Below, piece by piece: positions 1,149-46,785 of a DNA stretch of 47,725 bases. The position numbers and the translations under genes were made by a program. Position 1 is the stretch's first letter; each line of letters starts with the position of its first letter. Source of the DNA: a virus. The stretch is taken from the IMG/VR virus record IMGVR_UViG_3300026986_000001, positions 1-47,725 of that record; one strand, written 5' to 3'. Under the pieces are notes generated by a model. The model did not search any database and was not told the DNA's origin. It worked only from the letters and a program-made list of their open reading frames with translations.

Positions 1149-1423
1149 GCAAACAAGCGGGCGACACGGTTCTTCGATTGGACCTCAACGCGATGGAGTC
1201 CGAGGTCCTCGAGGACTATCTGGACTACGGCATCGAGAACGACCACCACTACGACGACGGCCTCGTCATCGAGGACGTCGACGAGGAGACGAAACAGGAG
1301 CTCGTCGACCACTGCTACGAGCGGGCGCGACGCGCCAGCCAGCGCGGCGACTATCAGTCCGCGCAGTGGTGTCGGAACGCCGGCTCGAAGGTCGACCGCG
1401 CGGAAATCGAGGTGGTCGCGTGA
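1145..1423 (+). CDS. hypothetical protein (92 aa)
   Basis: Very acidic ORF. Start in the junction cggtgattcagcATGagc. Stop overlaps the next ATG. Confidence 0.75.
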   Translation: MSKQAGDTVLRLDLNAMESEVLEDYLDYGIENDHHYDDGLVIEDVDEETKQELVDHCYERARRASQRGDYQSAQWCRNAGSKVDRAEIEVVA

Positions 1424-3803: not shown

Positions 3804-4371
3804 CGACGTCGACGGCGACGCGGAGTCTGGACGGGCAATTTCGCAGGAGGAGTCAAACCGCGAGAAAGGAGCTCGGAACGAGCGTGAGGCCTGTCGAATC
3901 CTCGGCGCTCGCTACCGAGCCGAACGAATCACAACCGAACACGACCCGTTCCATCTCGCGGACCTGATGGGTCTTCAGGGTGGCTTCCCCTTCGCCCTCG
4001 TTCAGGTGAAAACCAACCAGTTCAGTGCCGAATACAGCCGGTACTACAAGGACTGGGCACACCGCAAGATCGACGGCGAGCACACCATCTTCGAGGTGTG
4101 GGTTCGGAAGGACCGTGCTGGCTGGGAGATGCATCGCCTTGACCCGGAGAGCATGGACTTCGAGTGCTACTTCCAGACGTCAACCTGCGACCCGTCGAAG
4201 GTCCGTGACGGGTGGCGGGCTGCGTTCATGGAGGTGACCGACGTTGATGGAGACGGCCGTGGAGGTAATCAGACCTTCAGTTGCGGCGACTGTGGCGGCG
4301 AGTGGGAAAGCTACGACGACCTGCTCGCTCACTACTGCCCGGCTGCGTATCACGTCGGAGGTGAGTTCTGA
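3775..4371 (+). CDS. Hjc-like PD-(D/E)xK nuclease with C-terminal zinc finger
   Basis: KGARNEREACRIL ... LADLMG ... ALVQVKT matches the G-x3-E-R-E / D / (E/Q)-x-K layout of archaeal Holliday-junction resolvases. C-terminal CGDCG...HYC. The likely true start is the GTG at 3796, 7 nt after GGAGGTG. Confidence 0.6.
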   Translation: MTGRCRPVTDDVDGDAESGRAISQEESNREKGARNEREACRILGARYRAERITTEHDPFHLADLMGLQGGFPFALVQVKTNQFSAEYSRYYKDWAHRKIDGEHTIFEVWVRKDRAGWEMHRLDPESMDFECYFQTSTCDPSKVRDGWRAAFMEVTDVDGDGRGGNQTFSCGDCGGEWESYDDLLAHYCPAAYHVGGEF

Positions 4372-5261
4372 TGCCAGACGACCGTGGAACTCCGCAGAAG
4401 AGCGGGCAGAAGGTGTCGGCGTTCCCCTACATCGGGAGTAAGACGTTCCTCGCGCCGTGGATAGTCAACCACCTCGCCGACCACGAGACGTTCGTCGTCC
4501 CGTTCGGCGGCGCTGCGGGCGTCCTACTCAACAAGCCACGGAGCCGCGCCGAAATCTTCAACGACCGAGACGAGTACGTCGTCGAGTTCTTCGAGGTCGT
4601 CCGCGACCAGCCCGAGGCGCTCGCCGAGACCGCGCGGAACATCCCGTACTCGCGGGGGCTCTACAACGAGTGGAGCCGGGAATTCCGCGACCCCGACCAG
4701 ACGCTCGCCACCGACCGCGTCGAGCGCGCCGCCCGCTGGCTGTTTCTCCGGTACGCGAGCTTCAGCGGGCGCTACGGACAGCGCGCCGGCTTCGCAACGG
4801 ACACGCCGCGGAAGGGACCACAGAAGTCCGAGATTTGGGCGCGCATCCCCGAGCGCATCGAGACGCTCCGCGACCGCTTCACGGGCGTCGCCATCGAGTG
4901 CGGCGACTTCGCGGAGGTCATCGAGCGCTACGACGACGGCGACGTGCTGTTCTACTGCGACCCGCCGTACGTCGAGGAGAAAGACAACTACTACCGCGGT
5001 CCGTGCTTCGACCACGCCGCGCTCGTCGAGGCGCTCGACGCCGTCGACGGCGAGTGGGCGGTCTCGTACACGGAGCCGCCGGAGGGCCTGCGGGAGCTCG
5101 CAACCGCCGAGGTCGCCCGCGACTACAACCGCTCGGCCGCGCTCGACAACGAGACTCGTCGCGAACGGCTGTTTCTGTCCTACGACCCAGCCGAGGCCCC
5201 GGCGTTCGTGGATGCGTCGACGGCGCAGGCGACGCTCGGAGGTGGTCACGGTGGCGCGTGA
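4371..5261 (+). CDS. N6-adenine DNA methyltransferase, Dam/D12 class
   Basis: FPYIGSK, VVPFGGAAG (FxGxG), IFNDRD and YCDPPYV motifs in the Dam-family order. Confidence 0.85.
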   Translation: MPDDRGTPQKSGQKVSAFPYIGSKTFLAPWIVNHLADHETFVVPFGGAAGVLLNKPRSRAEIFNDRDEYVVEFFEVVRDQPEALAETARNIPYSRGLYNEWSREFRDPDQTLATDRVERAARWLFLRYASFSGRYGQRAGFATDTPRKGPQKSEIWARIPERIETLRDRFTGVAIECGDFAEVIERYDDGDVLFYCDPPYVEEKDNYYRGPCFDHAALVEALDAVDGEWAVSYTEPPEGLRELATAEVARDYNRSAALDNETRRERLFLSYDPAEAPAFVDASTAQATLGGGHGGA

Positions 5262-9330: not shown

Positions 9331-9404
9331 GGCGTTGTAGCTCAACTGGGAGAGCACCCGCCTGAAGAGCGGGTCTTGTCTCGGTTCGACTCCGAGCAAC
9401 GCCA
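9331..9404 (+). tRNA. tRNA-Phe (anticodon GAA)
   Basis: Cloverleaf read by hand. Acceptor GGCGTTG/CAACGCC, D arm GCTC-AACTGGGA-GAGC, anticodon arm CCCGC-CTGAAGA-GCGGG, T arm CTCGG-TTCGACT-CCGAG, discriminator A, no encoded CCA. The variable region is 6 nt, one longer than usual. Confidence 0.8.
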
Positions 9405-12482: not shown

Positions 12483-13010
12483 ATGCCCCCTGTTGAACTC
12501 ACCATCGAGCCGAACGAGAAGTACCGCGCTGTCGTCGAGGGCGAGTTCCCCGGCGACGAAGTACCCGCGACCGAAGAGGAGTTCCGTGAGCAACATCCCG
12601 CGCCTGACGCGGCCGACGCGTACATCAAGACCGTCGATGGCGCGCCAACGGAATCGGACATGGTGCCTCCTGAAGACCGCGTTGAAACCCTCGGCGACGG
12701 GATGTACGCCATCTCCTGCCGGCACTGCGACCGAACGTGGCGTGCCGAAGACTCCGAGACGAAGAAGGTCGACCCCCGAGAAGACCTGAAGTCACGCCTC
12801 AAATCCCACCGGCCCTGCGCTGAGAGCACGCTCACGTGGGCGGACTTCTCGCCATCGTCGGACCCGGATCTGCTGTCGAAGATTGCGACGTACTTCGACG
12901 GCATCGAACCCGACGAACCGGCGGACCGCATCCGCGCGAAGCTCCGCCTCCTCGACTGCGGCGCGTACGTTCGCGCGCAGATAGCCGCCCGTGGTGAACT
13001 CCGCGCATGA
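12483..13010 (+). CDS. hypothetical protein (175 aa)
   Basis: Acidic ORF containing CRHCD...HRPC. ATGA overlap with the next ORF. Confidence 0.75.
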   Translation: MPPVELTIEPNEKYRAVVEGEFPGDEVPATEEEFREQHPAPDAADAYIKTVDGAPTESDMVPPEDRVETLGDGMYAISCRHCDRTWRAEDSETKKVDPREDLKSRLKSHRPCAESTLTWADFSPSSDPDLLSKIATYFDGIEPDEPADRIRAKLRLLDCGAYVRAQIAARGELRA

Positions 13011-14713
13011 GCAACGGGCGGACGACCATCACCGCGGACAACGATGCTGTCGACGCGGTCGCTGCCCACAAGCGCGACGAGGACTCGTGGACGGACGTTC
13101 TGTTCCGGGCCGCGGAAGCCCTCGAAGCCGTGGAGGGCGACGGTGAACACGGTCTGAACACACTCACCGAGGACCACATCGACGACATCGCTGCCCGCAC
13201 CGCGGAACGCACCGCTGACGAAGTCGAGAATCCTCCTTACGATGCGCTGAACACAGACTGCATTCACCGATGCTCCCCGCTACCTGCACCGCCCGCCACC
13301 TACGCCTCGGCGAAGTCGTCGCGTGGTGCGTCGACGACGAGAAGCTCGCGCTCTACCAAGCCGGCAACGACGAAGCGTGGCTCGCCGCTGAACACCCCTG
13401 CGACCTCCGCGACTGGACCTGACACCATGACCGACACTGACTCCCCGGACGACGCCCTGTCCCTCGACGACCTCCCGCAGCCCGCCGACGAAACCACGGT
13501 CCCACCCGCGGACCTGCACGTCGACGGCGACAACCCCAACGAACAGTCGGACGAGATGTTCGGACTGCTCGTCGAGAATATGCGGGAGCACGGCTGGATC
13601 GGCAACGCCATCATCGCCAACACCGGCGACCTCCCCAGCTACGACGGCGACCCTGAGGGCCTCATCGCCGACGGCGAACATCGCTGGCGCGCCGCCCAAG
13701 AGCTCGGCCTCAACGAGGTCCCGGTGAAGTTCTACAACTTCGAGGACGACGCCGGCCGCAGGCTCTGGCGGCAGGAACTCAACAAAATTTCCGGCGAGCA
13801 TGACGCGAAGCGGGACGCGCTGGAGTACGACTACCTCATCAAAGAGGGTCGCTCCGATGAGGTCCACGACCTCGTCGACGCTGCCGACGAGGACCTCGAC
13901 GACCTACTTGATGAGATACGCGCCAACACCAACCGGACCCCCGGATACGATTTTGAAACCAGCCACGAGGTCTACTTCGAGGACTGTGTTCAGGGAATGA
14001 GAGACCGTCTCGAAGATAACTCCGTAGACCTCGTGTTCACGTCCCCGCCCTACAACGTCGGTCTTGCTGAGAGCGCCGACAAGAAGACCGACGGCTATGT
14101 GCCGTACTCTGACGACCGTGACCAAGCCGAGTACCGCGAGTTCATCGGCGAAGTCCTCGACGAGCTGGCACGCGTGATCAAACCCACGGGCCACATCTTC
14201 GTCAACCTTCAGGTGGACGTCCGCGACGGAACCATCAACCCCCCTACGTGGATTCCCGAGCGAATGCCGCTCCCGTGGCGGTCCTACATCGTTTGGAACA
14301 AAGCTAACACCTCGCGTTCCAGCATCTACCTGCAAGAGAACGGCCGGTTCATCCAGAGCTGGGAGCCTGTCTACCACTTCTCGAACTCGGAAGAACCACT
14401 TGACGGGAAACGGAATTTCGCAGTCTGGGACGTCGCTCCTGCAAACCTCGAAAGTGACCACGACACGGGCGTCCACCCTGCTCCCTTCTCCGTTGAACTC
14501 GTCCGGAACGCACTCGAACCAACGACTTCCCCCGGGGATACGGTTCTCGACCCATTCATGGGGAGCGGCACAACTGCCGTCGCCGCTATCCTGAACGACC
14601 GCGACTACGTCGGCTTCGAACTGGACGAGGAAGATGCCTATCGACCCGTCATCAAACGCCGTATCCAAGAAGCCAAACGCCAGCGCGCGGCCACGGTCAA
14701 CACTGAGGACTAA
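13007..14713 (+). CDS. ParB-like nuclease domain fused to a beta-class DNA methyltransferase (N4-C or N6-A)
   Basis: ParB/Srx motif LIADGEHRWRAAQELGL. MTase motif IV DLVFTSPPYNVG lies before motif I VLDPFMGSGTTAVAA. The enzyme core most likely starts at the in-frame ATG at 13427 (MTDTDSPDD). The first 140 codons look composite (see findings). Confidence 0.85.
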   Translation: MSNGRTTITADNDAVDAVAAHKRDEDSWTDVLFRAAEALEAVEGDGEHGLNTLTEDHIDDIAARTAERTADEVENPPYDALNTDCIHRCSPLPAPPATYASAKSSRGASTTRSSRSTKPATTKRGSPLNTPATSATGPDTMTDTDSPDDALSLDDLPQPADETTVPPADLHVDGDNPNEQSDEMFGLLVENMREHGWIGNAIIANTGDLPSYDGDPEGLIADGEHRWRAAQELGLNEVPVKFYNFEDDAGRRLWRQELNKISGEHDAKRDALEYDYLIKEGRSDEVHDLVDAADEDLDDLLDEIRANTNRTPGYDFETSHEVYFEDCVQGMRDRLEDNSVDLVFTSPPYNVGLAESADKKTDGYVPYSDDRDQAEYREFIGEVLDELARVIKPTGHIFVNLQVDVRDGTINPPTWIPERMPLPWRSYIVWNKANTSRSSIYLQENGRFIQSWEPVYHFSNSEEPLDGKRNFAVWDVAPANLESDHDTGVHPAPFSVELVRNALEPTTSPGDTVLDPFMGSGTTAVAAILNDRDYVGFELDEEDAYRPVIKRRIQEAKRQRAATVNTED

Positions 14714-22263: not shown

Positions 22264-23514
22264 ATGAGTGCCAACGCTAACCACTTCGTCAGCGGCCGCG
22301 GTCCGAAGGACCTCCTCGAACAGCAGGGGATGCTCGACCGCGCCATCGAAGCGCTCTCCCGAGTCGAACAGCAGGCCAGCTACTCCACGAGCGACGCCGC
22401 GCTCATCAACGACCTCTTCGGCTCCGCACTGTACGTCCAGTCGAACCTCGAAGCGAACGGCTACGGAGTCCTGCCGAAGGTCGACCGCTCCGGCGCGAAC
22501 ATCGAAGCGAGCCAGCCGCTCCCGCTGACGTTCCGCGCCGCCCACAGCCCCCCCGCGCTCCAGTCCACCGGCGAAGGCGCGGCCCTGCCTGACGGCCGGA
22601 AGTACACGCCGGAAGAGGTCTCCGCGGACGTCAAGACCAGCGAGGCGAAGATCGAGCAGTCCCACCTCCAGCAGGTCAAGGCCGACATCCTCGACGGCGT
22701 CTCGTGGGACGAACTCACTCGCGTCGACGAGCTGTTCCAAGAACTCGCCATCGACCGCGACGGCGTGATGGCGTCGGTCTCCGCGAACAATCAGGGGTAC
22801 GCGTCCCGGACGAAGATCACGGAGCTGGACCGCATCATCGCGTCCGGCGGCGAGGAGTCGAACGCGCAGGACACCAGCGACACGGTGTACTCGGACGGCG
22901 ACCTCGACGTCTACGACATCGACCGGTCGGCGGACTCGTGGGCCGACGCGTACGTCGACTTCACGAGCGACGGCTCGGTGCGCCAGCTCACCGAGAGCCT
23001 AATGGACTCGTTCCTCGCGTCGTTCTTCGACTACGGCAGCGCGTCGCGTGAGAACGTCATCATCCTCACGGGCCGGAACACCGCGCGCGTCCTCTCCGAG
23101 CTGCAGTCGGACTCCACGGACGGCGTGCAGGCCGTCGTGAACTACGACGCCGAGGACATCGGCCGCGACCAAGTCGAGGACGCCCAGACCGTGATGGGCG
23201 TGCCGACGATGACCCAGAGCCGGCACTACAAGGGCATCCCCATCGTCCCGAGCCAGCACGCGCCCGCCGACAGCCTCGAACGTATCTACCTCATCCCGAC
23301 GGACACCATCTCCGTCGACGGGGGGCAGGTGCCGCGCATCGCCGTCGAGGAGGTCGCCACGCCGCACTACGAGGAACTCACCGGCGACAACCCGGAGAAC
23401 GCGCCCTACCTCAGTCAGGGCAAGAAGGAGAACGCGGCGTACTACCTCCAGAGCCACGAGGTCGTCGCGCGCGACTTCTCCGCGCTCGGGAAGCTCCGGG
23501 ACATCAGCGAGTAG
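22264..23514 (+). CDS. major capsid protein
   Basis: 416-aa ORF directly after the scaffold gene in the canonical order protease, scaffold, major capsid. Confidence 0.7.
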   Translation: MSANANHFVSGRGPKDLLEQQGMLDRAIEALSRVEQQASYSTSDAALINDLFGSALYVQSNLEANGYGVLPKVDRSGANIEASQPLPLTFRAAHSPPALQSTGEGAALPDGRKYTPEEVSADVKTSEAKIEQSHLQQVKADILDGVSWDELTRVDELFQELAIDRDGVMASVSANNQGYASRTKITELDRIIASGGEESNAQDTSDTVYSDGDLDVYDIDRSADSWADAYVDFTSDGSVRQLTESLMDSFLASFFDYGSASRENVIILTGRNTARVLSELQSDSTDGVQAVVNYDAEDIGRDQVEDAQTVMGVPTMTQSRHYKGIPIVPSQHAPADSLERIYLIPTDTISVDGGQVPRIAVEEVATPHYEELTGDNPENAPYLSQGKKENAAYYLQSHEVVARDFSALGKLRDISE

Positions 23515-37439: not shown

Positions 37440-37835
37440 TCACTCGATTGCGTAGCCCCACTCCCGCAGGACATCCGCAACCTCGTCGGCGTGCTCAAGG
37501 CCGACCAAGAGTGCAGCCTCGCGCAGATCTGCCTTCTTCACAGACTCACCGAGCAGCTGCTCAACGTCACTCTTCCCCGAGCGTTCAGCGTCTACAGTGG
37601 ACGCCTGCAGGTGAAGCTGCACCGTCTTCTCACGCCCGTCCGTGATGCTCCCTCGACGATGAATCCACGGCAGCCGCGCCCTCGTTGTCGTGTCACCGCC
37701 AGCAGCCGCCGACCCACCCGTCGACTCTACGGACGAGTCCTGGTCCACGTCGCGACGACCGTCAGCGTCGTCCGCCTCAAAACTATCATCGTCGTCCCAG
37801 TCGTCGTCCGCAGCGCCGCGCTTGAATCCACCCAT
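37440..37835 (-). CDS. small protein co-transcribed with ParA (candidate centromere-binding adaptor)
   Basis: ATGA overlap with parA. Acidic disordered N-terminus and a structured C-terminal roughly 60 aa. The role is inferred from operon position. Confidence 0.6.
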   Translation of the reverse strand: MGGFKRGAADDDWDDDDSFEADDADGRRDVDQDSSVESTGGSAAAGGDTTTRARLPWIHRRGSITDGREKTVQLHLQASTVDAERSGKSDVEQLLGESVKKADLREAALLVGLEHADEVADVLREWGYAIE

Positions 37836-38722
37836 CAGGCAGTCACCTCGGTTTCATCCTCGTCGTCGAGCGCACCGGGCTCGGGTGGGTTCGGGGCCTC
37901 GATTCCGCCAACGTCCTCGATGAACCGCGCGATGTCGTCAAACTGCGCGAGCGTATCCACTTCGTAGTCTCGGCGCTGCCCGCGATGCTCACGCACGTAC
38001 CGGAACGCCGAGCACTGTTGCCGCCAGCACCCCTCCATCAGCGATGTCCGGTCCCCGATCACTGCGGGGACGTCGTACGGGATCTCCTCCAGGAGGTCTC
38101 GCTGGTCGCTCGTCCCCTTCACCCCAACGGGGACAGCGCCGAGGACACCGACGTCAATGGATAGTTGATCTGCGAAGTTCCGGGCGAGTTCCTCCAGGCC
38201 CTCAACTGCTGCTTGCCCTTTCGCGCTCGGTTCGACTGGGAGGAAGAGGTTTCGCGTGGCGTAGATCGCGTTGTAGAGGTGTGCGCCCTCGGTTGCCGGC
38301 GGGTCGACGATGACGACGTCGTACTCGCTGGGGATGCCGGCGTCTTGGAGGACGCGCCGCAGCTGGGCGTGGACGTTGTACGCCTCGCCGAAGTCCTCTG
38401 CTTTCTGCTTCTCGCGACGGAGGTGGTCTTCGAGGTCTGAGAGTGCGTTGTGTTCGGGGATGATGTCGACGCCTTCGGCGGTCCGAATAAGGTCATGGAA
38501 TGGGCCGCGTGGCGAGTCGACCATGTGGCGGACGATGTTGTCGGCCGACGGGTCTGCGCGGTCGTCGTCGACGTCGAACAGGCGGCTGAGGTTGCCGTCC
38601 TGGGGGTCGAGTGGGATGACGAGGACGTCGAGGCCGGCTCGGCGATGCGCGACGGCGAGGTTCGCAGCAAGCGTCGTTTTGCCGACGCCGCCTGCCTCCG
38701 AGTACACGGTGTATGCGAGCAT
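37835..38722 (-). CDS. parA: ParA/Soj-family partition ATPase
   Basis: N-terminal P-loop YSEAGGVGKTTLAANLA, VIPLDPQ, VVIVDPPA (Walker B-like). Size 295 aa. Confidence 0.85.
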   Translation of the reverse strand: MLAYTVYSEAGGVGKTTLAANLAVAHRRAGLDVLVIPLDPQDGNLSRLFDVDDDRADPSADNIVRHMVDSPRGPFHDLIRTAEGVDIIPEHNALSDLEDHLRREKQKAEDFGEAYNVHAQLRRVLQDAGIPSEYDVVIVDPPATEGAHLYNAIYATRNLFLPVEPSAKGQAAVEGLEELARNFADQLSIDVGVLGAVPVGVKGTSDQRDLLEEIPYDVPAVIGDRTSLMEGCWRQQCSAFRYVREHRGQRRDYEVDTLAQFDDIARFIEDVGGIEAPNPPEPGALDDEDETEVTA

Positions 38723-38764
38723 AGTCGATGGTGTGTGTCATAGGTAATGAATCTACGTCAGACA

Positions 38765-38830
38765 CATATCTAAGACACTTGTCTAAGACGCTCATCTAAG
38801 ATACTAAGATAAGTCCCCAAGATAAGTTAC
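38765..38830. promoter_or_regulatory. Iteron array upstream of parA (candidate centromere/operator)
   Basis: TCTAAGAC at 38769 and 38782 and TCTAAGAT at 38795, with exact 13-bp spacing, followed by AAGATAAGT twice (38806, 38820). An AT-rich TATA-like stretch at 38741-38755 lies about 27 nt upstream of the parA start. Confidence 0.6.
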
Positions 38831-38858
38831 TTCGTGTCGAGATTGCCAGACGCACCAG

Positions 38859-38906
38859 CCCTTAACCAACGCTCGGCTGAATGATACTCGCGTGTTGGTT
38901 AAGACT
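38859..38906. repeat. Hairpin element copy A (CCTTAACCAAC - spacer - GTGTTGGTTAAGACT)
   Basis: 10-bp perfect stem cttaaccaac/gttggttaag, and the loop contains gctcggct. It lies about 75 nt downstream of the 3' end of the minus-strand operon. The partner copy is at 42576-42623. Confidence 0.85.
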
Positions 38907-38978
38907 CAGCGAGAGGTAGCAGAAGTGCGAAAGCTATCGCAGTCCGCGGTTTACGAGTGTAACCGCCCGAGAGAAAAT

Positions 38979-39284
38979 CTAAACCGGGTACTCAACGTCG
39001 AACTGTTCCTTCGCCTTCTCGCCGGGGTACCACCACATGCTGTTCTCGTCGTGCTCCAGCCACCCGGCTTGCGCCATCACGGAAAGGGTCCGGCGAATCG
39101 TTCGGTCCTGTGACCGACGGAGGCCAGCTCGACGACGGATACGCCACGCCTGAAACGGAAGCGGACGATCAGCGAGCAGGGAGAGTGCCGCGTCCCAGAC
39201 GCGGTCGCGGGTAGTCGCGTCGTCAATACTGTCCGCGACTGCGTCGGCTTGTTCGTACGGGGCTGTGCTATTGGTCTCGGACAT
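38979..39284 (-). CDS. small winged-helix-like protein (101 aa)
   Basis: TIRRTLSVMAQAGWLEHDE resembles a recognition helix plus wing. Mixed acidic and basic composition. Confidence 0.6.
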   Translation of the reverse strand: MSETNSTAPYEQADAVADSIDDATTRDRVWDAALSLLADRPLPFQAWRIRRRAGLRRSQDRTIRRTLSVMAQAGWLEHDENSMWWYPGEKAKEQFDVEYPV

Positions 39285-39289
39285 ATCTG

Positions 39290-39802
39290 TCAGTCCTCGC
39301 GTTCATCAGTAGGCTTGTTCTCACGCGCGACAGCCATCTTCTCCTCAACCTCTTCCTGGAACGCCTCGCTGCCTTCCGCCTGCTCAATGAGGTGGTCGAT
39401 GAAGTTGTTCACCGCGAAGGTCGGCTGGAAGTTCTCCTGGAGAATCAGGGTCACGCCGACTGTGGTGTAGTCCTCGATCTCGACGTCGTCGACGTAGCCA
39501 TGCTCGGGCACTGGCTTGCACTTCACGTCGACTGGCCGCGCCTGCCACTTCCCGACCGACTTGGGGATGGAGATGTCGGCCTGCCAGTGCGTCGTCTCGT
39601 AGCTCGTGAGCCGTGCTTCAAAGCCGTCGCGCTCCCAGACGAGCTCGTCGTCCTCGATGCGGACGTTGTCACCGGGTGCCTCCTCGGGGTACTCCTCCCA
39701 TTCGGGGAGGACGCGGACGTCCTGCTGGGGTTCCACGAACTCGCGGTCCATGACCTCGTCGGGCGTCAGTTCTTCTTCCTCGATTTGGTCCTTCGTGACC
39801 AT
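39290..39802 (-). CDS. hypothetical acidic protein (170 aa)
   Basis: Very acidic ORF. TATA-like GGTTATACGG (39827-39833, minus strand) lies about 27 nt upstream of the ATG, which suggests a leaderless transcript. Confidence 0.75.
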   Translation of the reverse strand: MVTKDQIEEEELTPDEVMDREFVEPQQDVRVLPEWEEYPEEAPGDNVRIEDDELVWERDGFEARLTSYETTHWQADISIPKSVGKWQARPVDVKCKPVPEHGYVDDVEIEDYTTVGVTLILQENFQPTFAVNNFIDHLIEQAEGSEAFQEEVEEKMAVARENKPTDERED

Positions 39803-39895
39803 ACGCTACCAACACCCCGAAACGCCGTATAACCGCGTCTCAGCGCACACATCTGGCCGTTTCGAGGACACGCCGTGTCCGCTCATCAGTCGTAG

Positions 39896-40264
39896 CTACT
39901 CGCCATCGAGAATCGCCTCCATGCGGTCGAGGGCGGCTTCGAGGTCGTCACCGTTCAGTTGTTCGTGTGCGTGTTGGGCGTCCGCGAGGGCGTCGCGGAG
40001 CGCGTCGACGTCGACGGTCGTGTCTTCGGTCTCGGTGCCGGGGCGAGGGTCGTCCACCAGCTCGTAGAGGCCGGTTTCGAGGCGGTCGACGTGACCGTGT
40101 TCGCTGAGTCGTTTGAGGCGTTGGCTGACGTAGCTGCGGTCGGTGTCGGTTCGTTCGGCGATGAACGTTGGGGTGCCGCGGCCGTCTTGGAGTTCGTTGA
40201 GGACGCGGCGGTCTGCGTCGTTGAGGTCGTCGGGGTCGAGCACTGGGTGTTGCTCCGCGTGCAT
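39896..40264 (-). CDS. winged-helix transcription regulator (candidate repressor)
   Basis: DADRRVLNELQDGRGTPTFIAERTDTDRSYVSQRLKRLSEHGHVDRLETGLYEL is a MarR/ArsR-type wHTH. First gene of the minus-strand arm of a divergent promoter region. Confidence 0.75.
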   Translation of the reverse strand: MHAEQHPVLDPDDLNDADRRVLNELQDGRGTPTFIAERTDTDRSYVSQRLKRLSEHGHVDRLETGLYELVDDPRPGTETEDTTVDVDALRDALADAQHAHEQLNGDDLEAALDRMEAILDGE

Positions 40265-40443
40265 ACACTAACTTTCTTTTCCAACCCTAAGTAATTACTG
40301 TCTATTACAACAGTAATTGGTAACGCTCCGTTAGTTATTAGTGGGTGGCGCTACAAGACTGTAGTAGAGCCCGAGGACGCCGCCCAGAATGGAAAGGGTG
40401 GCCGCGTGCCATCAACACGCGACCTCGGGTCCACAACAGACCC
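40265..40443. promoter_or_regulatory. AT-rich divergent promoter region with palindromic operator
   Basis: AATTACTGT-ctattaca-ACAGTAATT at 40293-40318. The left arm overlaps the TATA-like stretch about 27 nt upstream of the 40264 start. A further AT-rich ttagttattag is at 40331-40341. Confidence 0.6.
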
Positions 40444-40890
40444 ATGAGCACCCACACACCGAAAACGCAAGACGGTATCGAAGCACTCCACAAGGAAACC
40501 GACCCGCGGCCGGTGCCCGAAGCGTGGCTCGACGACGCCCCGCACGCCAACGTCGACGCCGACGAAACGCGGTACTACGCCGTCCTCCACACCATCGAGA
40601 AGAGCGTCGCCGACGACCACGACGTCCTCGCCGGCCACAAGCAGGGGCGTGCCGAGGACTGGACCGTCCACGTCCTCTTCGTGCGCGCTGACGGCAAGCG
40701 CCGCGTCGAACAGCCCTACGACGCCCGCGTCATCGAGACCGCCGACGGCCTCGACGTCACGCCCCGCGACTTCCGCGCGAGCATCGCCGTCGACGGCCGC
40801 GACATCACGCCCGTCTCCCGCCCCCGCACGACCGACATCGAGCGCGCTCTGAGCGAGCTCCACAACATCGAGGTGGCCGACGATGAGTAA
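40444..40890 (+). CDS. hypothetical protein (148 aa, MSTHTPKTQD...)
   Basis: ATG at 40444. The upstream part of the track ORF is Arg-rich. Acidic product. Confidence 0.75.
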   Translation: MSTHTPKTQDGIEALHKETDPRPVPEAWLDDAPHANVDADETRYYAVLHTIEKSVADDHDVLAGHKQGRAEDWTVHVLFVRADGKRRVEQPYDARVIETADGLDVTPRDFRASIAVDGRDITPVSRPRTTDIERALSELHNIEVADDE

Positions 40891-41206
40891 CGGATTCGCG
40901 CACAAGCTCACGTACGCCGGCAGCGACCCCTACGGGCCTGAAGAGGACCGTGAGGACATCACTCACGAGGAGTACGAGCTCCTCACGCAGGACGAGGCCT
41001 ACCGGAAGCTCGCGGAACTCCGGTACATCTCCGATGTCCTCGAGGCCGACCTCGACGGCCGCGACGACGTTCCCGACGCCACGCAAGACGCCCTGTACGA
41101 AATCTACTTGGGGCGGGACGCGCCGGTAAAGCGCGCCGTCGACGCGTACGTTGACGAGTGGCTGGCCGACCACCGCGACGGTGAAGAACCGGAGGTGTCG
41201 GCGTGA
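40883..41206 (+). CDS. hypothetical acidic protein (107 aa)
   Basis: Overlaps the upstream stop. Acidic helical sequence. Confidence 0.75.
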   Translation: MSNGFAHKLTYAGSDPYGPEEDREDITHEEYELLTQDEAYRKLAELRYISDVLEADLDGRDDVPDATQDALYEIYLGRDAPVKRAVDAYVDEWLADHRDGEEPEVSA

Positions 41207-41679
41207 TGCTATCCACGCAGGACCTTCGTGGCCGCCAGAGCGAGCTGGCCGCGCACTTCGCCAGCGACTTCGACGCGACCCTCCTCCACAACCGCGTCCA
41301 CGAACGCGTCGGCGAGGACAACGAGACGGAGCACATCTTCGACGCCGCCGTGGACGTTGCCCGCGTCCGCGACGTCCGCCGCGACCGGCTTGGGGACGGC
41401 AGCGAGTTCGGCGACTCCTCGCCCGCCGTCGCTCGGCTCTCATACGTCGGCCGCCAGCGCGCGCTGGAGGTCGTCGCCGAGACCTGCGCCGAGGTCCTCA
41501 CCGAGGCGACCGAGTGGACCGATGCGTGGGACCCGGAGGCTATCGAGGCAGCGCGCATCGAGGCGGCGCGCTGGCTCCAACACCAGACCAACGCCGCGTC
41601 CCGCGCCGGCGTCCTCGACGTACTGGCGGACTACAGCGACGACCCCCGGATGGACATCGCGCTCGGTGATTCGGCATGA
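41203..41679 (+). CDS. hypothetical protein (158 aa)
   Basis: GTG at 41203 or ATG at 41206, 8 nt after GGAGGTG. Ends in the conserved junction cggtgattcggcATGagc. Confidence 0.75.
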   Translation: MMLSTQDLRGRQSELAAHFASDFDATLLHNRVHERVGEDNETEHIFDAAVDVARVRDVRRDRLGDGSEFGDSSPAVARLSYVGRQRALEVVAETCAEVLTEATEWTDAWDPEAIEAARIEAARWLQHQTNAASRAGVLDVLADYSDDPRMDIALGDSA

Positions 41680-41894
41680 GCTACGAGTGCGAGAACTGCG
41701 GCGCCGCGTACCAGTTCGGCCCCGCCGGCGAATCCCTCGTCTCCATCAGCATCTTCCACAACGGCGCGAGTGGCGAGGACTACACGGCCCAGATCTGTCC
41801 GGACTGCTACCACGACCTCCTCGAAGAGTTCCGCGACGCCGTCAACGCGCCCGACCGCGACGAAGACAACGAGGACACGGAGGGCGATAGCTGA
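41676..41894 (+). CDS. small zinc-ribbon protein (72 aa)
   Basis: CENCG...CPDC. Confidence 0.7.
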   Translation: MSYECENCGAAYQFGPAGESLVSISIFHNGASGEDYTAQICPDCYHDLLEEFRDAVNAPDRDEDNEDTEGDS

Positions 41895-42208
41895 TGGCGA
41901 CGAGCAGCCACGCCGGCCAACCGGCGGACCTCTCCGAATTGGATGCGCGCGCGCTGACGGAAGCAATGACGGTGCTCCCGGATGCGCCCGGAATGTACGT
42001 GGTTGTCTCCGGCAGCGGCAGCGAGTACGTCGTCGACGCCCGCGGCGGCGCGTGTACGTGTCCGGACGCCCGCTACCGGGACCGGACGTGCAAGCACCAG
42101 CGCCGCGTCGCCTACGAGCTCGGCGAGCGCGACCTCCCGGACTGGGCGGACCACAGCAGTCTCGACGCGCACTTCCGCGAGTTCGTCACTCCCTCCGAGA
42201 ACGCATGA
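41894..42208 (+). CDS. SWIM-type zinc-finger protein (104 aa)
   Basis: CTCPDARYRDRTCKH fits the CxCx(n)CxH pattern. Confidence 0.7.
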   Translation: MATSSHAGQPADLSELDARALTEAMTVLPDAPGMYVVVSGSGSEYVVDARGGACTCPDARYRDRTCKHQRRVAYELGERDLPDWADHSSLDAHFREFVTPSENA

Positions 42209-42528
42209 GAGACCCGCTGAAGAACACGAAATATCGGTCGTTCACGCGGTCGGACACGAACTTCACGCTCGTCCGCTCGGAGACGCCCATCGACGTCGAC
42301 GGCTACAAGCTCGGGGAGATGACCGGGCTCGTCCAGTGTGACGAGTGCGAGCAGACTGGTCAGAACGTTGACGAGATACCGCACCGGGATGGCTGCAGTC
42401 AGAGCGATGTCCACTCGTGGTACTGGCTGGTCGTCCACGGGTTCATCGACGCGACCGACGTTCCGAGCAGGTATCAGGACGCCATGCCGGATGTGGCCGC
42501 GCCGTCGTCGGCGCCGTACAACGACTAA
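42205..42528 (+). CDS. hypothetical protein with CDEC motif (107 aa, MRDPLKNTKY...)
   Basis: ATG at 42205 in an ATGA overlap with the previous stop. The upstream part of track ORF 41770..42528 is Arg/Pro-rich. Confidence 0.7.
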   Translation: MRDPLKNTKYRSFTRSDTNFTLVRSETPIDVDGYKLGEMTGLVQCDECEQTGQNVDEIPHRDGCSQSDVHSWYWLVVHGFIDATDVPSRYQDAMPDVAAPSSAPYND

Positions 42529-42575
42529 CCCCGCAGTTCCGACTGCAGTTTTCGCCCTCGTGGGCTTCAACGAAT

Positions 42576-42623
42576 CCTTAACCAACAGCCGAGCGTGACG
42601 CCGCCGCCGTGTTGGTTAAGACT
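42576..42623. repeat. Hairpin element copy B (CCTTAACCAAC - spacer - GTGTTGGTTAAGACT)
   Basis: Same 10-bp stem and same flanks as copy A. The loop contains agccgagc, the reverse complement of the copy A octamer. It lies about 50 nt after the end of the plus-strand operon and about 35 nt before the orc1/cdc6 TATA-like box. Confidence 0.85.
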
Positions 42624-42653
42624 GCTTGGGCCGGGGGCCGGAATTCACCCCGG

Positions 42654-42666
42654 ATGTTTTACCCTC
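42654..42666 (+). promoter_or_regulatory. TATA-like box GTTTTACCC upstream of orc1/cdc6
   Basis: The T-run starts 29 nt upstream of the ATG at 42686, which fits a leaderless haloarchaeal transcript. The same TTTTACC core recurs at 43754. Confidence 0.45.
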
Positions 42667-42685
42667 ATAGCCGCGATTCGCTGTC

Positions 42686-43732
42686 ATGATCACCAAGCCC
42701 GCGGTCTTCGAGGACGACCACCTCCCCGACCGGCTCCTCCATCGGCACACCGAGAAGCGGGAGCTCGCACGCGGGTTTAAGCCCATCACCCGCGGAGAGC
42801 CCAGCGAGTACGTTCTCCTCGCTGGCCCCAGCGGCGTTGGGAAGACAGCACTCGCGCGGAGCAGCCTTGAAGACGTGAGTGACTTCGGGAGCGTCGACAC
42901 CGGGTTCGTGCGCGCGATGGGGAAGCGGACAGGGTCGATTCTCCGCGACATCATCGACGAGCACCCCCGCGAGATGGACGTCAGTCACTCCACGCCTGTC
43001 GAGGAGCTACCGAAGCGACTCGCCGCGGCGACCACGCGCCCGTACGTCGTCGTGCTTGACGAGGCCGACGACCTCCCCAGTACGGATGTCCTCGACGCGC
43101 TGCGGCGGTGCCGGTGGGTGTCCGTCGTCGTGGTGACCCATGACCAGACCCGGTTCGAGTCTCGCACCAGTGCGCCGTTCTCGATTACGCTCAACGTCGA
43201 CCGCTTCAAGAGCGCGGAGCTGGCGGACATCCTCGAAGCGCGCGCCCACGAGGGCCTGCAGGGTGGCGTGGTCTCTCGTGGACAGCTGGAGTCCATCGCG
43301 GACACGGTCGCGGGCGTTGCCCGCTGGGGTATCCAGTCGCTGCGAGCGGCCGCGGAGCTCGCCAGCGAGCGCGGGCACTCGACTATCAAGTCCCACGACG
43401 TGCGAGACTGCTACGAGCGGGCGCGCGGCCGGATTCGCGCGTCGAACCTCCAGTCGCTCCCCGTGCATCATCACGTTCTGTACGAAATCGTGCGGCAGGC
43501 GGGCGCGTGCTCGGGGGAGGAGGTCCACGACCAATATGAGCGAGTGGCCGACAGGGTCTACGATGGCCTTACTGTCGCGCCGGTCGGCCGGCGGAGCCGG
43601 CGGAACAAGCTGGCGAAGCTCGCTGCGTACGACTTGATTGACTTCGCCGAGGAACGTGGGGGGCGCAGGTACCGTGTGCTCGACGAGGACTTGGAGTCCG
43701 AAGTGGTGGCGTTGCCGTCGGTGCGTGCGTAG
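42686..43732 (+). CDS. orc1/cdc6: Orc1/Cdc6-family AAA+ replication initiator
   Basis: N-terminal VFEDDHLPDRLLHR, Walker A GPSGVGKT, Walker B VVVLDEADDL. The C-terminal part with VLYEIV...RRSRRNKLAKLAAYDLI fits the winged-helix domain. Confidence 0.85.
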   Translation: MITKPAVFEDDHLPDRLLHRHTEKRELARGFKPITRGEPSEYVLLAGPSGVGKTALARSSLEDVSDFGSVDTGFVRAMGKRTGSILRDIIDEHPREMDVSHSTPVEELPKRLAAATTRPYVVVLDEADDLPSTDVLDALRRCRWVSVVVVTHDQTRFESRTSAPFSITLNVDRFKSAELADILEARAHEGLQGGVVSRGQLESIADTVAGVARWGIQSLRAAAELASERGHSTIKSHDVRDCYERARGRIRASNLQSLPVHHHVLYEIVRQAGACSGEEVHDQYERVADRVYDGLTVAPVGRRSRRNKLAKLAAYDLIDFAEERGGRRYRVLDEDLESEVVALPSVRA

Positions 43733-43750
43733 GGGGGTCGGAAATCACCC

Positions 43751-43763
43751 GCCTTTTTACCGT
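43751..43763 (+). promoter_or_regulatory. CCTTTTTACC: oligo-T terminator for orc1/cdc6 and/or TATA-like box for the next gene
   Basis: T5 run 22 nt after the orc1/cdc6 stop and about 33 nt before the ATG at 43788. Confidence 0.4.
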
Positions 43764-43787
43764 GTATCCGGCCGTCGGGTGTCGTGT

Positions 43788-44015
43788 ATGCCGACGCTTG
43801 AAACCAGAGCCGGACAGGTCTCGCTCACGAAGCTACGCCGCGTCGAAGGTGGTGCTCGCGTCGCCGTCGAGAAGGGCGACCGGAAATGGAACGTCGACGT
43901 GCTCGATAGCGGCGAAGTCCAGATCGTGGCGTCGTGGCGTGATGGGGAGTTGGCGGACGTCCACCTTCCCGAGGAGATTCGGGAGCGGCTGACTGAGTAC
44001 GCGAGCCAGAAATGA
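43788..44015 (+). CDS. small hypothetical protein (75 aa, MPTLETRAGQ...)
   Basis: ATG at 43788 inside track ORF 43638..44015. The upstream part overlaps orc1/cdc6 in another frame. Confidence 0.6.
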   Translation: MPTLETRAGQVSLTKLRRVEGGARVAVEKGDRKWNVDVLDSGEVQIVASWRDGELADVHLPEEIRERLTEYASQK

Positions 44016-44020
44016 GGGAA

Positions 44021-44242
44021 TCAGTCAGCCGTCGGAGCCGCCCGGTTCAGATTTCCCTCAAGCTCGCCCTCCTCCGCGAAGTATTCGCGGACTTCTGGGG
44101 GGATGTCTTCCTCGTCGAGGAAGTCCTCCACGACTTTGCGGAGGAGGTCGGCTTCCGAAACGTCGCGTCTCATCGCGGCGATTTGGAATTCGGTCTTGGT
44201 GTCGTCGTCGACGACCGCGGAGATTCGGGATTCCTCAGCCAT
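44021..44242 (-). CDS. ribbon-helix-helix (CopG-like) DNA-binding protein
   Basis: MAEESRISAVVDDDTKTEFQIAAMRRDVSEADLLRKVVEDFL has the strand-helix-helix pattern. The track start (TTG at 44320) and an ATG at 44275 are alternative starts. Confidence 0.65.
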   Translation of the reverse strand: MAEESRISAVVDDDTKTEFQIAAMRRDVSEADLLRKVVEDFLDEEDIPPEVREYFAEEGELEGNLNRAAPTAD

Positions 44243-44359
44243 GTTCCACACGTCCACGCGACTGTTGAAGAACATTGCCCCATGACTACCGCACAATGAA
44301 CCTGTGGAACAGCGGAACAATTATTATAGGAGCGCTGTAACAATGGAACACAGGATAGG

Positions 44360-44542
44360 ATGAAGGAAGCAAAACTAACCGGCGATGTTCGGGCGCGAGT
44401 AACCGACAACGTGGAAGACGCTGTCGAGAAACTCGCTCACGACCGTAGTGAACCGGGGGACCCGACCCACGGTTCCGACATCGTCCGGGACGCGCTGGAG
44501 GACTACGAGCCACTCCAGCCGTATCTCGAAGACGAAGAATAG
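44360..44542 (+). CDS. small RHH-like protein (60 aa)
   Basis: VRARVTDNVEDAVEKLAH...SDIVRDALEDY. The TATA-like TTATTATAGG at 44321-44330 lies about 35 nt upstream. Confidence 0.6.
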   Translation: MKEAKLTGDVRARVTDNVEDAVEKLAHDRSEPGDPTHGSDIVRDALEDYEPLQPYLEDEE

Positions 44543-44656
44543 CCGCCCTCTCACAGCCCAGCACCCCCACCCTGCCAAAAGTGTGGTGCTGGACTGCGGA
44601 ACGGTGGCTCCGGTGCATCGCACGCGAACCACTGCTGCACGACCACGACCGAAGCC

Positions 44657-45052
44657 ATGTCGACAGAGAATCCCCCTCACAAAAACGATACCGGCATAGA
44701 CCGCACGAACCAGTCCACGGACGCCCGCGACCTCACGGCGTTCCAGAAGAACATCCTCACCGTCCTCGCCGAGGAGGCCCGCTACGGGCTCGCCGTCAAG
44801 CGCGCGCTCGAAGCCTACTACGACAAGGAGGTCAACCACGGCCGGCTCTACCCGAACCTCGACGACCTCACCAACAAGGGCCTCGTCGAAAAGTCCGAAC
44901 TCGACAAGCGCACGAACAAGTACGCGCTCACCGACGCCGGCTTCGACGCCGTCCTCGACGAAATCGAGTGGACGCTCTCGAAGTTCCTCACCGACGACGA
45001 GCGCCGCGACCTCATCCGGGACCACCCGCAGTTCACCGGAGGTGACGCCTGA
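44657..45052 (+). CDS. PadR-family winged-helix regulator
   Basis: FQKNILTVLAEEARYGLAVKRAL...NHGRLYPNLDDLTNKGLVEK...KYALTDAG matches the PadR signature. Confidence 0.8.
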   Translation: MSTENPPHKNDTGIDRTNQSTDARDLTAFQKNILTVLAEEARYGLAVKRALEAYYDKEVNHGRLYPNLDDLTNKGLVEKSELDKRTNKYALTDAGFDAVLDEIEWTLSKFLTDDERRDLIRDHPQFTGGDA

Positions 45053-45504
45053 TGCAGTGTGATACCTGCGGCGCCGACCTCCCAGATGATCCGCGTGACG
45101 CCGTCGAAAACGACCGCCTTGACGAAGTGGTCGCCCACATCTACGACCCCGAAGAAGAGTCGTTCGTCCTCTCCGAGACAGCCTACTTCTGTGACCTCAC
45201 GTGCGCCGCCGAAGCCACGCTTCTGACCGAACCCGAAGAAGTCACTGAAGCATCGAAGGCCACGTTGATGCGCCACAACAACGGCCTCGTGTTCTTCCTC
45301 GGCGAGTACGCCCCGGAGATGGAGTACGAGGTCTTCGACGAAGGCGGCACTATCCAGACGCGAACCTGCGAGCGAATCGCAGTCTTCGACCTCGCCACTC
45401 GCATGACTAAGGAGACCTTCCAAGAGAAGGTCACCGGCGGACGTAACATTCAGACCGTACTGGCAGACCGCTTCGGCATCCCCGTCGACGGAGGTGACGC
45501 GTGA
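45052..45504 (+). CDS. hypothetical protein with N-terminal CxxC (150 aa)
   Basis: MQCDTCG...CDLTC. TGATG junction preceded by GGAGGTGA. Confidence 0.75.
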   Translation: MQCDTCGADLPDDPRDAVENDRLDEVVAHIYDPEEESFVLSETAYFCDLTCAAEATLLTEPEEVTEASKATLMRHNNGLVFFLGEYAPEMEYEVFDEGGTIQTRTCERIAVFDLATRMTKETFQEKVTGGRNIQTVLADRFGIPVDGGDA

Positions 45505-45740
45505 TGTATGAGTTCGATGTCTACGCGCCCACCTGCAACGGGACGAGCGACGCCGAGGCCGTCATCACCCTGCCCGAACGGCAGCTCACCTACTGCCCGT
45601 ACTGCGGGGAGGCCGACTGCCTCGAAGAGTACGGGGAGCTGTACAGCGCGAAGGTCGGCGACGACCTCGCGGACTTCGACCTCAACGACGCGCACCAGCG
45701 CGCAGACAGCCAGAGCCTGACCGCCGGAGGTGACGACTGA
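45501..45740 (+). CDS. small zinc-ribbon protein (79 aa)
   Basis: ...CPYCGEADC. TGATG junction preceded by GGAGGTGA. Confidence 0.7.
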   Translation: MMYEFDVYAPTCNGTSDAEAVITLPERQLTYCPYCGEADCLEEYGELYSAKVGDDLADFDLNDAHQRADSQSLTAGGDD

Positions 45741-45895
45741 TGTCCGACGGCGCGCCCGTCTACGCGATTACGGGGCAGCTTCAGCCCCATCTCGCCGGCA
45801 ACTTCCACAGCGAGGACGGCGAGATTCTCGTCGAGCAAGAGGACGAGGACGTGTACCTCATCGCCGAACCGCGGTCCAGCGAGGGTGATAGCTGA
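45740..45895 (+). CDS. small acidic protein (51 aa, MSDGAPVYAI...)
   Basis: Fills the gap exactly. The ATG overlaps the previous stop (TGATG after GGAGGTGA) and its own stop overlaps the next ATG. Below the ORF-track cut-off. Confidence 0.55.
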   Translation: MSDGAPVYAITGQLQPHLAGNFHSEDGEILVEQEDEDVYLIAEPRSSEGDS

Positions 45896-46785
45896 TGCGG
45901 ACGCTGCTCTGCATCTACGTCAAGCCCCCATCGGAACCGCTCACCAGCACGCAGTCCGGGAACTCCGCCGTCGTCGTCGAGGAGGCCCAAGAGACGCTCA
46001 ACGGCCACACCGTCTACCACGGCACCGCCGCCTACACCGGCACGAGGCCCGTCGACGGTCCCTACGTCACCACCGACGAAGACGGCGAGCTCACCATCCG
46101 GGAGACCGAGCACGTCATCGAGGACCCGCGAAGCGTCGAGTTCATCGCCGTGCCCGATGCGAACCCCGGGTTCGCTACGTTCGACACGAGCGACAACCGG
46201 TTCGCGCGGAACCTCATCTCGATGGAGACCGACGGCTGGCTCGAACCCGCCGTCTACGATGTCGACAAGTTCACCGGCCACCTGCGAGGGAAGTACGACC
46301 CGACCGTCGAGCAGGTCGGCTGGGAGGACGGCGACGAAGCCGGCGTCTTCTACCCCGACGAAGACCACGACGACAAAACGGTCAATGTCACGCGCGCCGT
46401 CCGGAAGAAGAAGTCCCAGATTGGGTTCCGGTACTTCGACGGCGCCAACATCGTCCGCGGGACGCTCGCCGGGTCCGGCTACTGCAACATCTACAGCCGC
46501 GACGACGCGGAGTGGACGGCGCAGTTCATCCAGACCGAACTGATGCCGTTCGCCGCGGTCCCGGACATCGGGTGGGCCGAGGACATCGCGTCCGGCGACG
46601 CCGACTTCGAACTGGAGTGCGCCGACTGCGGGGCCACCGGGAACGTCCTCCGCGAGGTCGACAGCGGCGACATCCTCTGCCCCGACTGCGAGGACGCCCG
46701 CGAAGAGGAAGACGACGAGGACGAGCCCGCGGAGAACCAGCAGCAGCTCGGCGACGCGGCGACGGCCGACGGAGGTGATGCCTGA
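45895..46785 (+). CDS. hypothetical protein with C-terminal zinc ribbon (296 aa)
   Basis: Acidic ORF with CADCG...CPDC near the C-terminus. Confidence 0.8.
   Translation: MRTLLCIYVKPPSEPLTSTQSGNSAVVVEEAQETLNGHTVYHGTAAYTGTRPVDGPYVTTDEDGELTIRETEHVIEDPRSVEFIAVPDANPGFATFDTSDNRFARNLISMETDGWLEPAVYDVDKFTGHLRGKYDPTVEQVGWEDGDEAGVFYPDEDHDDKTVNVTRAVRKKKSQIGFRYFDGANIVRGTLAGSGYCNIYSRDDAEWTAQFIQTELMPFAAVPDIGWAEDIASGDADFELECADCGATGNVLREVDSGDILCPDCEDAREEEDDEDEPAENQQQLGDAATADGGDA

Follow-up and report, generated by a model that had tools for sequence, protein, structure and literature searches.

Some prophages, such as P1 and N15, are kept by partition instead of integration, and in partition systems of type Ib, represented by ParF-ParG of TP228, a small Walker-type ParA without an N-terminal helix-turn-helix (HTH) acts together with repeats upstream of the operon and with a small adaptor, the N-terminal tail of which is flexible. 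Regarding the viruses of haloarchaea, the proviruses of phiH1 and phiCh1 are circular extrachromosomal DNA, and ChaoS9 carries parA, orc1, and repH (PMC6471424). Recruitment of the host replisome is already expected of viruses encoding Orc1/Cdc6 alone (bioRxiv 10.1101/2025.02.15.638363). Haloferax volcanii has four operons of a ParA and a partner, of which HpaAB of pHV3 has been characterized: HpaB is a centromere-binding adaptor with a ribbon-helix-helix (RHH) motif, binds AT-rich sites on pHV3 only, and is required for the maintenance of pHV3, and its N-terminal 12 residues are required for HpaA-dependent positioning (Premrajka et al. 2026, PMC13722703). The present study concerns the whole of the IMG/VR virus record IMGVR_UViG_3300026986_000001, a stretch of 47,725 bases (hereafter, the window), and in particular its parA gene, the partner gene overlapping it, and the iterons upstream of both.

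A preliminary description of this genome proposed that the virus has no integrase and that ParA, the partner protein, the iterons, and an Orc1/Cdc6 initiator may allow it to persist as a low-copy episome. Persistence as an episome is supported by the comparisons described below, in which the partition cassette was found to be of a cellular type and the relatives carrying ParA were found to be virus-sized or plasmids. Based on its genes and those of its relatives, we consider the window to represent a temperate virus, the prophage of which would be a free, circular, actively partitioned plasmid and not an integrated element, with a probability of approximately 70%. The term "low copy" is taken from the presence of active partition. 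A plasmid lifestyle is already known for phiH1 and phiCh1, as is the presence of both parA and orc1 in ChaoS9, and in this respect the reading will not surprise specialists. The new aspects are a lineage without an isolated relative, a cellular cassette of ParA and a DUF7970 protein on a virus, and the swapping of integrase and ParA modules within that lineage. With it, a siphovirus-like lineage would join the few archaeal viruses thought to persist as plasmids.

The window resembles phiH1, phiCh1, and ChaoS9 in that all are haloarchaeal tailed viruses, that parA occurs in the group, and that ChaoS9 has orc1. However, these three are myoviruses with head genes unrelated to those of the window, their ParA is approximately 29% identical to that of the window and has no DUF7970 partner, they also encode RepH (and, in phiH1 and phiCh1, PCNA), and they encode the tyrosine recombinases Int1, which acts in tail-fibre inversion, and Int2. 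The window shares the gene content of a plasmid-prophage, in that a single replicon without an integrase carries a complete virion module, its own initiator, and an active partition system. It differs from P1 and N15 in having an archaeal Orc1/Cdc6 instead of RepA or RepL, and no Cre/lox-like resolution system or telomerase was found in it.

The partition cassette

The preliminary description had reported a ParA-family ATPase operon with upstream iterons, and each part of it was recovered, from the Pfam match of ParA and the overlap with the partner gene to the iteron array detected by Tandem Repeats Finder (TRF) (Table 1). ParA was 70-88% identical to ParAs of haloarchaeal (mega)plasmids and secondary chromosomes, including the "plasmid partitioning protein ParA" of Haloarcula hispanica N601 (75%) and the second ParA of H. 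volcanii pHV4 (70%). Among GenBank phage records, ParA was found only in PhiCh1, at 29% identity. The P-loop lies at the extreme N-terminus of the protein (GGVGKTT, residues 11-17), and the Walker A motif reads SEAGGVGKTT (residues 8-17), in which Ala replaces the signature Lys of the deviant Walker A motif (KGGxxGK[ST]). ParA of the window lacks the signature lysine by which the ParA/MinD class is recognized. Since this Ala is invariant in all 23 aligned members of the haloarchaeal ParA family, the protein is probably not inactive. The other mark of the class, an adaptor gene with adjacent cis repeats, is present, and this layout recurs in the relatives and in cellular replicons.

More than 370 haloarchaeal proteins make up the family of the partner, which is precomputed as PF25925/DUF7970; the Pfam release that we scanned does not contain PF25925 and gave no match. 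The partner was 37% identical (E 3e-20) to the downstream neighbor of the pHV4 ParA, and homologues of its C-terminal domain were present on 138 plasmid records, all from Halobacteria. No DUF7970 homologue was found in the GenBank phage records searched. The window accordingly has the composition of a ParA-DUF7970 replicon cassette, with an orthologous ParA and a DUF7970 gene immediately downstream. In the alignment of the partner family, an invariant N-terminal peptide, M-x-G-F-K-x-G (MGGFKxG), is followed by a variable, acidic, disordered linker and then by a conserved C-terminal part, which begins with LPW..R..ITDGR..TVQLHLQ and ends in three helices. This sequence pattern and the likeness to HpaB suggest that the DNA-binding part is of the RHH type. 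In a model of the monomer, the mean predicted local distance difference test score (pLDDT) was 63 and only the three C-terminal helices were confident (pLDDT near 89); a Foldseek search of this model against the PDB gave no match at E<=0.001. We regard the DUF7970 protein as a candidate centromere-binding adaptor.

The cis elements were identified by reading intergenic DNA; a generic repeat search of 36.3-47.7 kb returned GC-rich coding noise only. The iterons lie 47-110 bp upstream of parA, within a spot that is among the three highest of the genome in A+T content. Exact copies of TCTAAGAYRC start at 38769, 38782, and 38795, with a spacing of 13 bp, and are followed by two AAGATAAGT units, and TRF placed the array at 38760-38831 with a period of 13. 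Between the iterons and the TATA-like stretch, the motif GTCTGACG (38756-38763, minus strand) is conserved upstream of parA in every relative bearing ParA and in Haloarcula replicons (at about 3960 in loci L052-L054), and is probably a conserved promoter or an element proximal to the transcription factor B recognition element (BRE) of haloarchaeal parA operons. The motif was located 30-45 bp from the start of parA even in relatives with a ParA only 25-27% identical.

In three Haloarcula replicons, parA overlaps by 4 nt with a downstream DUF7970 gene of 126 aa, and is preceded by five TCTTAGA iterons at a 13-bp phase, then GTCTGACG, and then a TATA-like stretch; the cassette layout and the iteron core are the same as those of the window. 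The layout is also kept by virus-like relatives, with GTCTAAC repeats in G369 and Haloarcula rubra and with TCTTAGA in G380. The iteron core and a strand in the DUF7970 protein vary together: TVQLHLQ is paired with TCTTAGA in the window, G380, and H. hispanica, and VQFFLQ with GTCTAAC in G369 and H. rubra. On pHV4, where the strand reads VPLFLQ, the upstream region is different and rich in TGTTCA. This co-variation is the best evidence obtainable that the DUF7970 protein may read the iterons.

Taken together, the layout, the co-variation, and the analogy with HpaB and ParG point to a mechanism in which the DUF7970 protein would bind the five TCTTAGA iterons that precede the parA promoter, and would probably do so in dimeric form by means of the TVQLHLQ strand. 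The resulting complex would be the centromere complex and probably also an autorepressor, because the iteron array abuts the parA promoter. The N-terminal peptide of the DUF7970 protein may contact nucleoid-bound ParA-ATP, and this contact would space plasmid copies over the nucleoid such that each daughter cell inherits one. A complex prediction of the ParA dimer with the partner scored 0.32, and the best of three controls 0.00; the runs shared at least 13% of contacts, with a partner pLDDT of at least 54. The mark used for such predictions was reached by 58 of 80 solved complexes and by 2 of 110 mismatched pairs, and those that reached it at scores of 0.60 or below comprised only 7 of the 80 solved complexes and both mismatches. 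We take the predicted contact as a hint only.

The pair appears to be built like HpaAB without being orthologous to it, and it does not belong with HpaAB by sequence. Both have the same two-gene layout and an adaptor composed of an N-terminal ParA-contact peptide (..EDPF.. in HpaB), an acidic linker, and an RHH-type part. However, HpaA is only 27% identical to ParA of the window and keeps the signature lysine (KGGIGKS, compared with EAGGVGKT), HpaB matches the partner marginally (BLASTP E 1e-4 over 30 residues in the last helices; hhalign probability 46%), and the hpaS3 sites of pHV3 form six dispersed peaks, in contrast to the single iteron array at the promoter of the window. A small ParA, a small adaptor, and repeats upstream of the operon are features shared with type Ib systems; no sequence relationship was detectable between the partner and ParG or ParB. 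A homologous pair with overlapping genes and a ParA 70-75% identical is found on pHV4 (HVO_RS03875/03880; HVO_A0458/A0459) and in the cassettes of H. hispanica chromosome II and plasmids, and the H. hispanica copies share with the window the TCTTAGA core, the 13-bp phasing, the GTCTGACG motif, and the TVQLHLQ strand. These secondary-replicon cassettes reside on replicons of 130-640 kb, whereas the virus genome is 47.6 kb. The pair of the window appears to be of the type of the second pHV4 operon, which is known from genes alone. A testable role is proposed for the DUF7970 protein: it would be the centromere-binding adaptor of the commonest haloarchaeal ParA and read 13-bp-phased iterons through a short, co-varying strand.

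We also considered whether the virus copies a host-replicon centromere, given the TCTTAGA and TVQLHLQ sequences as in H. hispanica chromosome II and plasmids, and could ride on or compete with the segregation of that replicon, with the lineage passing between integrated and plasmid lifestyles by exchange of its maintenance module, which would be either an integrase and attachment (att) sites or ParA, DUF7970, iterons, and PadR. This proposal is doubtful in our judgment; if true, it would make partition incompatibility, displacement of the host replicon, or exclusion of related elements possible.

Relatives and lifestyle

Relatives were collected through the capsid protein (encoded at 22264-23514), which had no match in 50,697 phage records, and 13 of them from haloarchaeal genomes and plasmids were examined. 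Eight are on virus-sized molecules of 46-58 kb. Two of these are finished circular plasmids, Natrinema thermotolerans A29 unnamed4 (49.4 kb) and Natronosalvus rutilus WLHS1 unnamed3 (58.5 kb), and a third is a 53.4-kb contig of Haloarcula rubra F13 with its own coverage of 114.8, a 127-bp end overlap, and a capsid protein 79-80% identical to that of the window. The remaining five are contigs, two of which have end overlaps (127 and 89 bp), and in some virus-sized contigs the gene order wraps around the contig ends. ParA was present in seven of the eight, PadR in all eight, and a PF00589 integrase in one, the Natrinema plasmid. The other five relatives reside in contigs of 242 kb-2.9 Mb. None of the five has ParA, the partner, or PadR, and in four of them a tyrosine integrase lies within approximately 5 kb of the outermost virus-like gene, G076 being the one without. 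The difference in ParA (7/8 vs 0/5) gave p ~0.005 in a one-sided Fisher test, based on small counts of non-independent relatives.

The only close integrated relative is G498, in which TerL, portal, and capsid are 91, 82, and 90% identical, respectively, to those of the window. It has an Orc1 homologue, and an integrase is found in place of the set of ParA, partner, and PadR. Its provirus of approximately 50 kb (G498:C22 221064-271414; loci L048-L051) ends on the right with a 465-aa tyrosine integrase and is bounded by an 18-bp direct repeat, TCCGGCCCTTGGCTTTTC, with one copy at the 3' end of tRNA-Cys (221064) and the second immediately past the integrase (271397). A search by exact repeats for att sites of the proviruses in G106, G206, G138, and G076 returned chance-length matches of 15-18 bp only. 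These comparisons indicate that the maintenance module is exchangeable within one virus lineage, and that the ParA version appears to accompany the free, virus-sized state. The lineage offers a natural comparison of two maintenance strategies in one virus family, an integrase with att sites and ParA with DUF7970 and iterons, and its members include plasmids of cultured haloarchaea (N. thermotolerans A29 and N. rutilus WLHS1) and the circular contig of H. rubra F13, which may be tested at the bench.

Regarding the Natrinema plasmid (L001, CP031301.1), ParA and the tyrosine integrase are both encoded within 43095-46356, and the latter is 28-33% identical to the integrases of G498 and G138. It is possible that this element follows both lifestyles, or that the integrase serves in multimer resolution. 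An "AAA family ATPase" of the Natronosalvus plasmid was considered as a ParA and rejected, as it matched AAA_22 and AAA_30 only.

The absence of an integrase from the window, as originally described, was borne out by all searches. Neither a tyrosine (PF00589) nor a serine (PF00239) recombinase was found as a six-frame candidate at E<=10; no recombinase, polymerase, or primase was detected in Pfam scans of 62 open reading frames (ORFs) or in PHROGs and NCBIfam scans of the unassigned ones; and the integrases of five relatives, compared with all frames of the window by tblastn, gave no match (best E 0.015). The profile searches for a hidden recombinase that the preliminary description had recommended were thus without a signal, and no integrated copy of this ParA-type genome turned up. 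Look-ups in the ESM Atlas for the two largest ORFs without a function provided no usable lead and no recombinase-like fold.

Integration through an unrecognized recombinase, through one supplied by the host (such as XerA), or by recombination between homologous sequences, with tRNA-Phe as one example, is distinctly improbable on this evidence. It would accommodate the five relatives that are integrated or in large contigs, the G076 provirus without a nearby integrase, and the large share of ORFs, approximately half, that have no function. However, neither profile libraries nor the integrases of relatives gave a recombinase signal, and every relative in a large contig is without ParA, whereas every relative bearing ParA is virus-sized. 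The window also contains a complete, virus-encoded tRNA-Phe (GAA; 9331-9404, plus strand), which would suit integration of this kind. It was rejected as an att site, as it does not lie at a boundary but inside the conserved viral gene order; its equivalent position in that order in the relatives G380:C69, G076:C1, and G206:C19 indicates that it is a conserved viral gene.

The source of the genome is a metagenome, and read evidence was taken from two small metagenome runs, which are a possible source, and from one hypersaline-lake metagenome with a small share. When metagenome contigs were aligned with the window, two unitigs of 39.7 and 7.2 kb were obtained, the latter extending beyond the last base of the window. 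One break between unitigs coincides with the PadR gene, and another, as calculated from the lengths of the unitigs, is located near 4.3-5.1 kb. These contigs showed no host junction, but cannot prove its absence and are indecisive on lifestyle.

The uniform depth of the metagenome sequence, without a host junction, also fits a virulent or chronic virus without stable lysogeny, in which ParA and its partner position or distribute replicating genomes in the course of infection or of a transient carrier state, or in which the cassette is a passenger recently captured from a plasmid of the host. The identity of ParA to cellular ParAs, at 70-88%, fits a recent capture, and the immunity function of the window is putative. 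We nevertheless consider a virus of this type unlikely, because the cassette is intact in its promoter, iterons, and overlapping genes, because several related elements retain it with diverged iterons and a matching recognition strand, which argues for selection, and because relatives persist as plasmids in cultured strains and several repressor-type genes of the window are located at divergent promoters.

The plasmid records among the relatives also raise the question of whether the window is a plasmid with defective or domesticated head-tail genes, i.e., a cryptic element or one resembling a gene transfer agent, and not an infectious virus; no relative is an isolated virus, and the capsid protein is without a match in phage records. 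This is very unlikely: the genes from TerS to the tail form a complete, syntenic module without stop codons, the record is classed as a complete virus in IMG/VR, and the head genes share 80-91% identity with their counterparts in an integrated provirus, the att sites of which are intact.

Several points weigh against a partitioned, plasmid-like prophage. The metagenome source comes with no lysogen or host, and lysogeny itself is inferred; a virus-sized circular contig may represent virus DNA that was being replicated or had been packaged, and not a stable plasmid. The association of ParA with the absence of an integrase is not absolute, as the Natrinema plasmid has both, and the Natronosalvus plasmid has no detectable ParA. 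Without the signature lysine, the ATPase cycle of ParA may differ from that of bacterial ParA, and the monomer model of the partner shows no strand and does not resolve the DNA-binding fold. The repeat search of 36.3-47.7 kb gave no clear pair of origin recognition boxes, and no origin was identified. No multimer-resolution function is evident in the window, and the half of the ORFs without an assigned function may leave room for a recombinase of an unrecognized family.

Replication and regulatory genes

The Orc1/Cdc6 initiator of the preliminary description is present, with a Walker A (GPSGVGKT), a Walker B (VVVLDEAD), and a Cdc6 lid. Its C-terminus gave no Pfam WHD_Cdc6 match at E<=0.01; residues ~260-348 are of the right length and winged-helix-like by eye only. 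The only DNA-level matches to the window in GenBank phage records were to orc1 of Halobacterium virus ChaoS9, the best match with 68% over 400 bp, and to orc1 of Halorubrum provirus Humcor1. The proposed lack of a DNA polymerase, MCM, and primase was likewise confirmed: none was found in the Pfam, PHROGs, and NCBIfam ORF scans, and six-frame searches for MCM, DNA_pol_B, and Prim-Pol gave no candidate at E<=10. As no viral helicase, polymerase, or primase was detected, the virus Orc1/Cdc6 would bind an origin near its own gene and load the host MCM and replisome.

The sequence GGGGSCGGAAWTCACCC, followed by TTTTTAC, occurs approximately 27-30 bp before the starts of orc1 and of the 75-aa ORF at 43788-44015. 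It flanks orc1 on both sides with two matches, a number that was also reached in 6 of 100 shuffles. The element is more like a shared promoter than an origin repeat, and suggests two co-regulated leaderless transcripts.

Among the repressor-like genes of the preliminary description, the winged-HTH and PadR genes were supported by Pfam, and the two RHH genes were not. The latter, at 44021-44245 (minus strand) and 44360-44542 (plus strand), are RHH-like by eye only. The MarR_2 gene and the plus-strand operon point away from each other at 40230-40378, where the A+T content of the genome is highest. The winged-HTH protein, PadR, and the small regulators, encoded at divergent AT-rich promoters, would silence the lytic genes.

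A PadR homologue was present in eight of the eight virus-sized relatives and in none of the five in large contigs, and PadR seems to be a module common to many episomal elements of haloarchaea. The protein is 52-63% identical over the eight virus-sized relatives, far above the capsid protein, which is 35-40% identical in seven of them. Over the PadR gene (core ~44740-44960), at which the assembly graph breaks, the summed contig depth in the metagenome runs was 300, 154, and 1248, compared with ~38, 16, and 0.1-32 elsewhere.

Genome layout and additional features

The window is the complete genome of a haloarchaeal siphovirus-like virus, as judged from a 99-bp direct terminal repeat and a CheckV completeness estimate of 100%; the unit genome is 47.6 kb, with a G+C content of approximately 66%. 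Approximately 62 genes were picked out by codon-position G+C, the majority of which are on the plus strand, and they form three blocks (Table 1). No tail sheath was found in the structural block in ORF profile scans.

Table 1. Features of the window, with positions counted from its first base
Feature	Position	Strand	Description
Early/modification block			C5 methyltransferase, D12 methyltransferase, HTH protein, metallophosphoesterase with HTH, fusion of a ParB_N domain with an N6/N4 methyltransferase
Structural block			TerS, TerL, portal with a MuF-like part, capsid, tail tube, tape-measure-like protein, fn3 tail protein
Maintenance and regulation region	36-47 kb		
ParA partner	37440-37835	-	131 aa; one-base overlap with parA; DUF7970 family
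parA	37835-38722	-	295 aa; Pfam AAA_31 (E 3.5e-20) and CbiA (E 6.8e-13), residues 5-229
parA promoter region	38743-38763	-	TATA-like ATTCATTACC and GTCTGACG motif
Iterons	38765-38831		Five, phased at ~13 bp; core TCTTAGA in the sense of parA; candidate centromere and operator
Palindrome, copy 1	38861-38903		CTTAACCAAC-N23-GTTGGTTAAG; separates the iterons from the end of the minus-strand regulator operon
MarR_2 winged-helix regulator	39896-40264	-	Pfam match; first gene of the minus-strand operon
Palindrome, copy 2	42577-42620		CTTAACCAAC...GTTGGTTAAG (N23/24); separates the orc1 promoter from the end of the plus-strand operon
orc1 promoter-like element	42634-42661	+	GGGGCCGGAATTCACCC...TTTTAC; repeated at 43734-43761 before ORF 43788-44015
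orc1/cdc6	42686-43732	+	348 aa; Cdc6_lid (E 2.4e-11) and AAA_16 (E 1.5e-10)
PadR regulator	44657-45052	+	Pfam match

The arms of the palindrome were found as four exact copies, compared with 0.5 expected by chance. Each palindrome is located just past the 3' end of one of the two divergent operons and just before the parA or orc1 promoter, and a TAACCAACAC...GTGTTGGTTA version occupies the same place upstream of the iterons in G369 and H. rubra. The palindrome may form a hairpin that acts as a terminator or insulator, or may be bound by a protein.

Three DNA methyltransferases are encoded on the plus strand, a C5 enzyme at 2283-3803 (E 2.6e-45), a D12 N6-adenine enzyme at 4371-5261 (E 4.9e-23), and, at 13007-14713, an N6/N4 enzyme fused to a ParB_N domain (E 1.7e-33 and 3e-6, respectively). 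The fusion protein is a methylase and not the partner in partition. The ORF at 1135-2286 (plus strand), listed with 383 aa, probably starts at 1423, because its first 96 codons are rich in Arg and Pro and overlap the better-coding ORF 1145-1423, and because relatives align only from residue 110 on.

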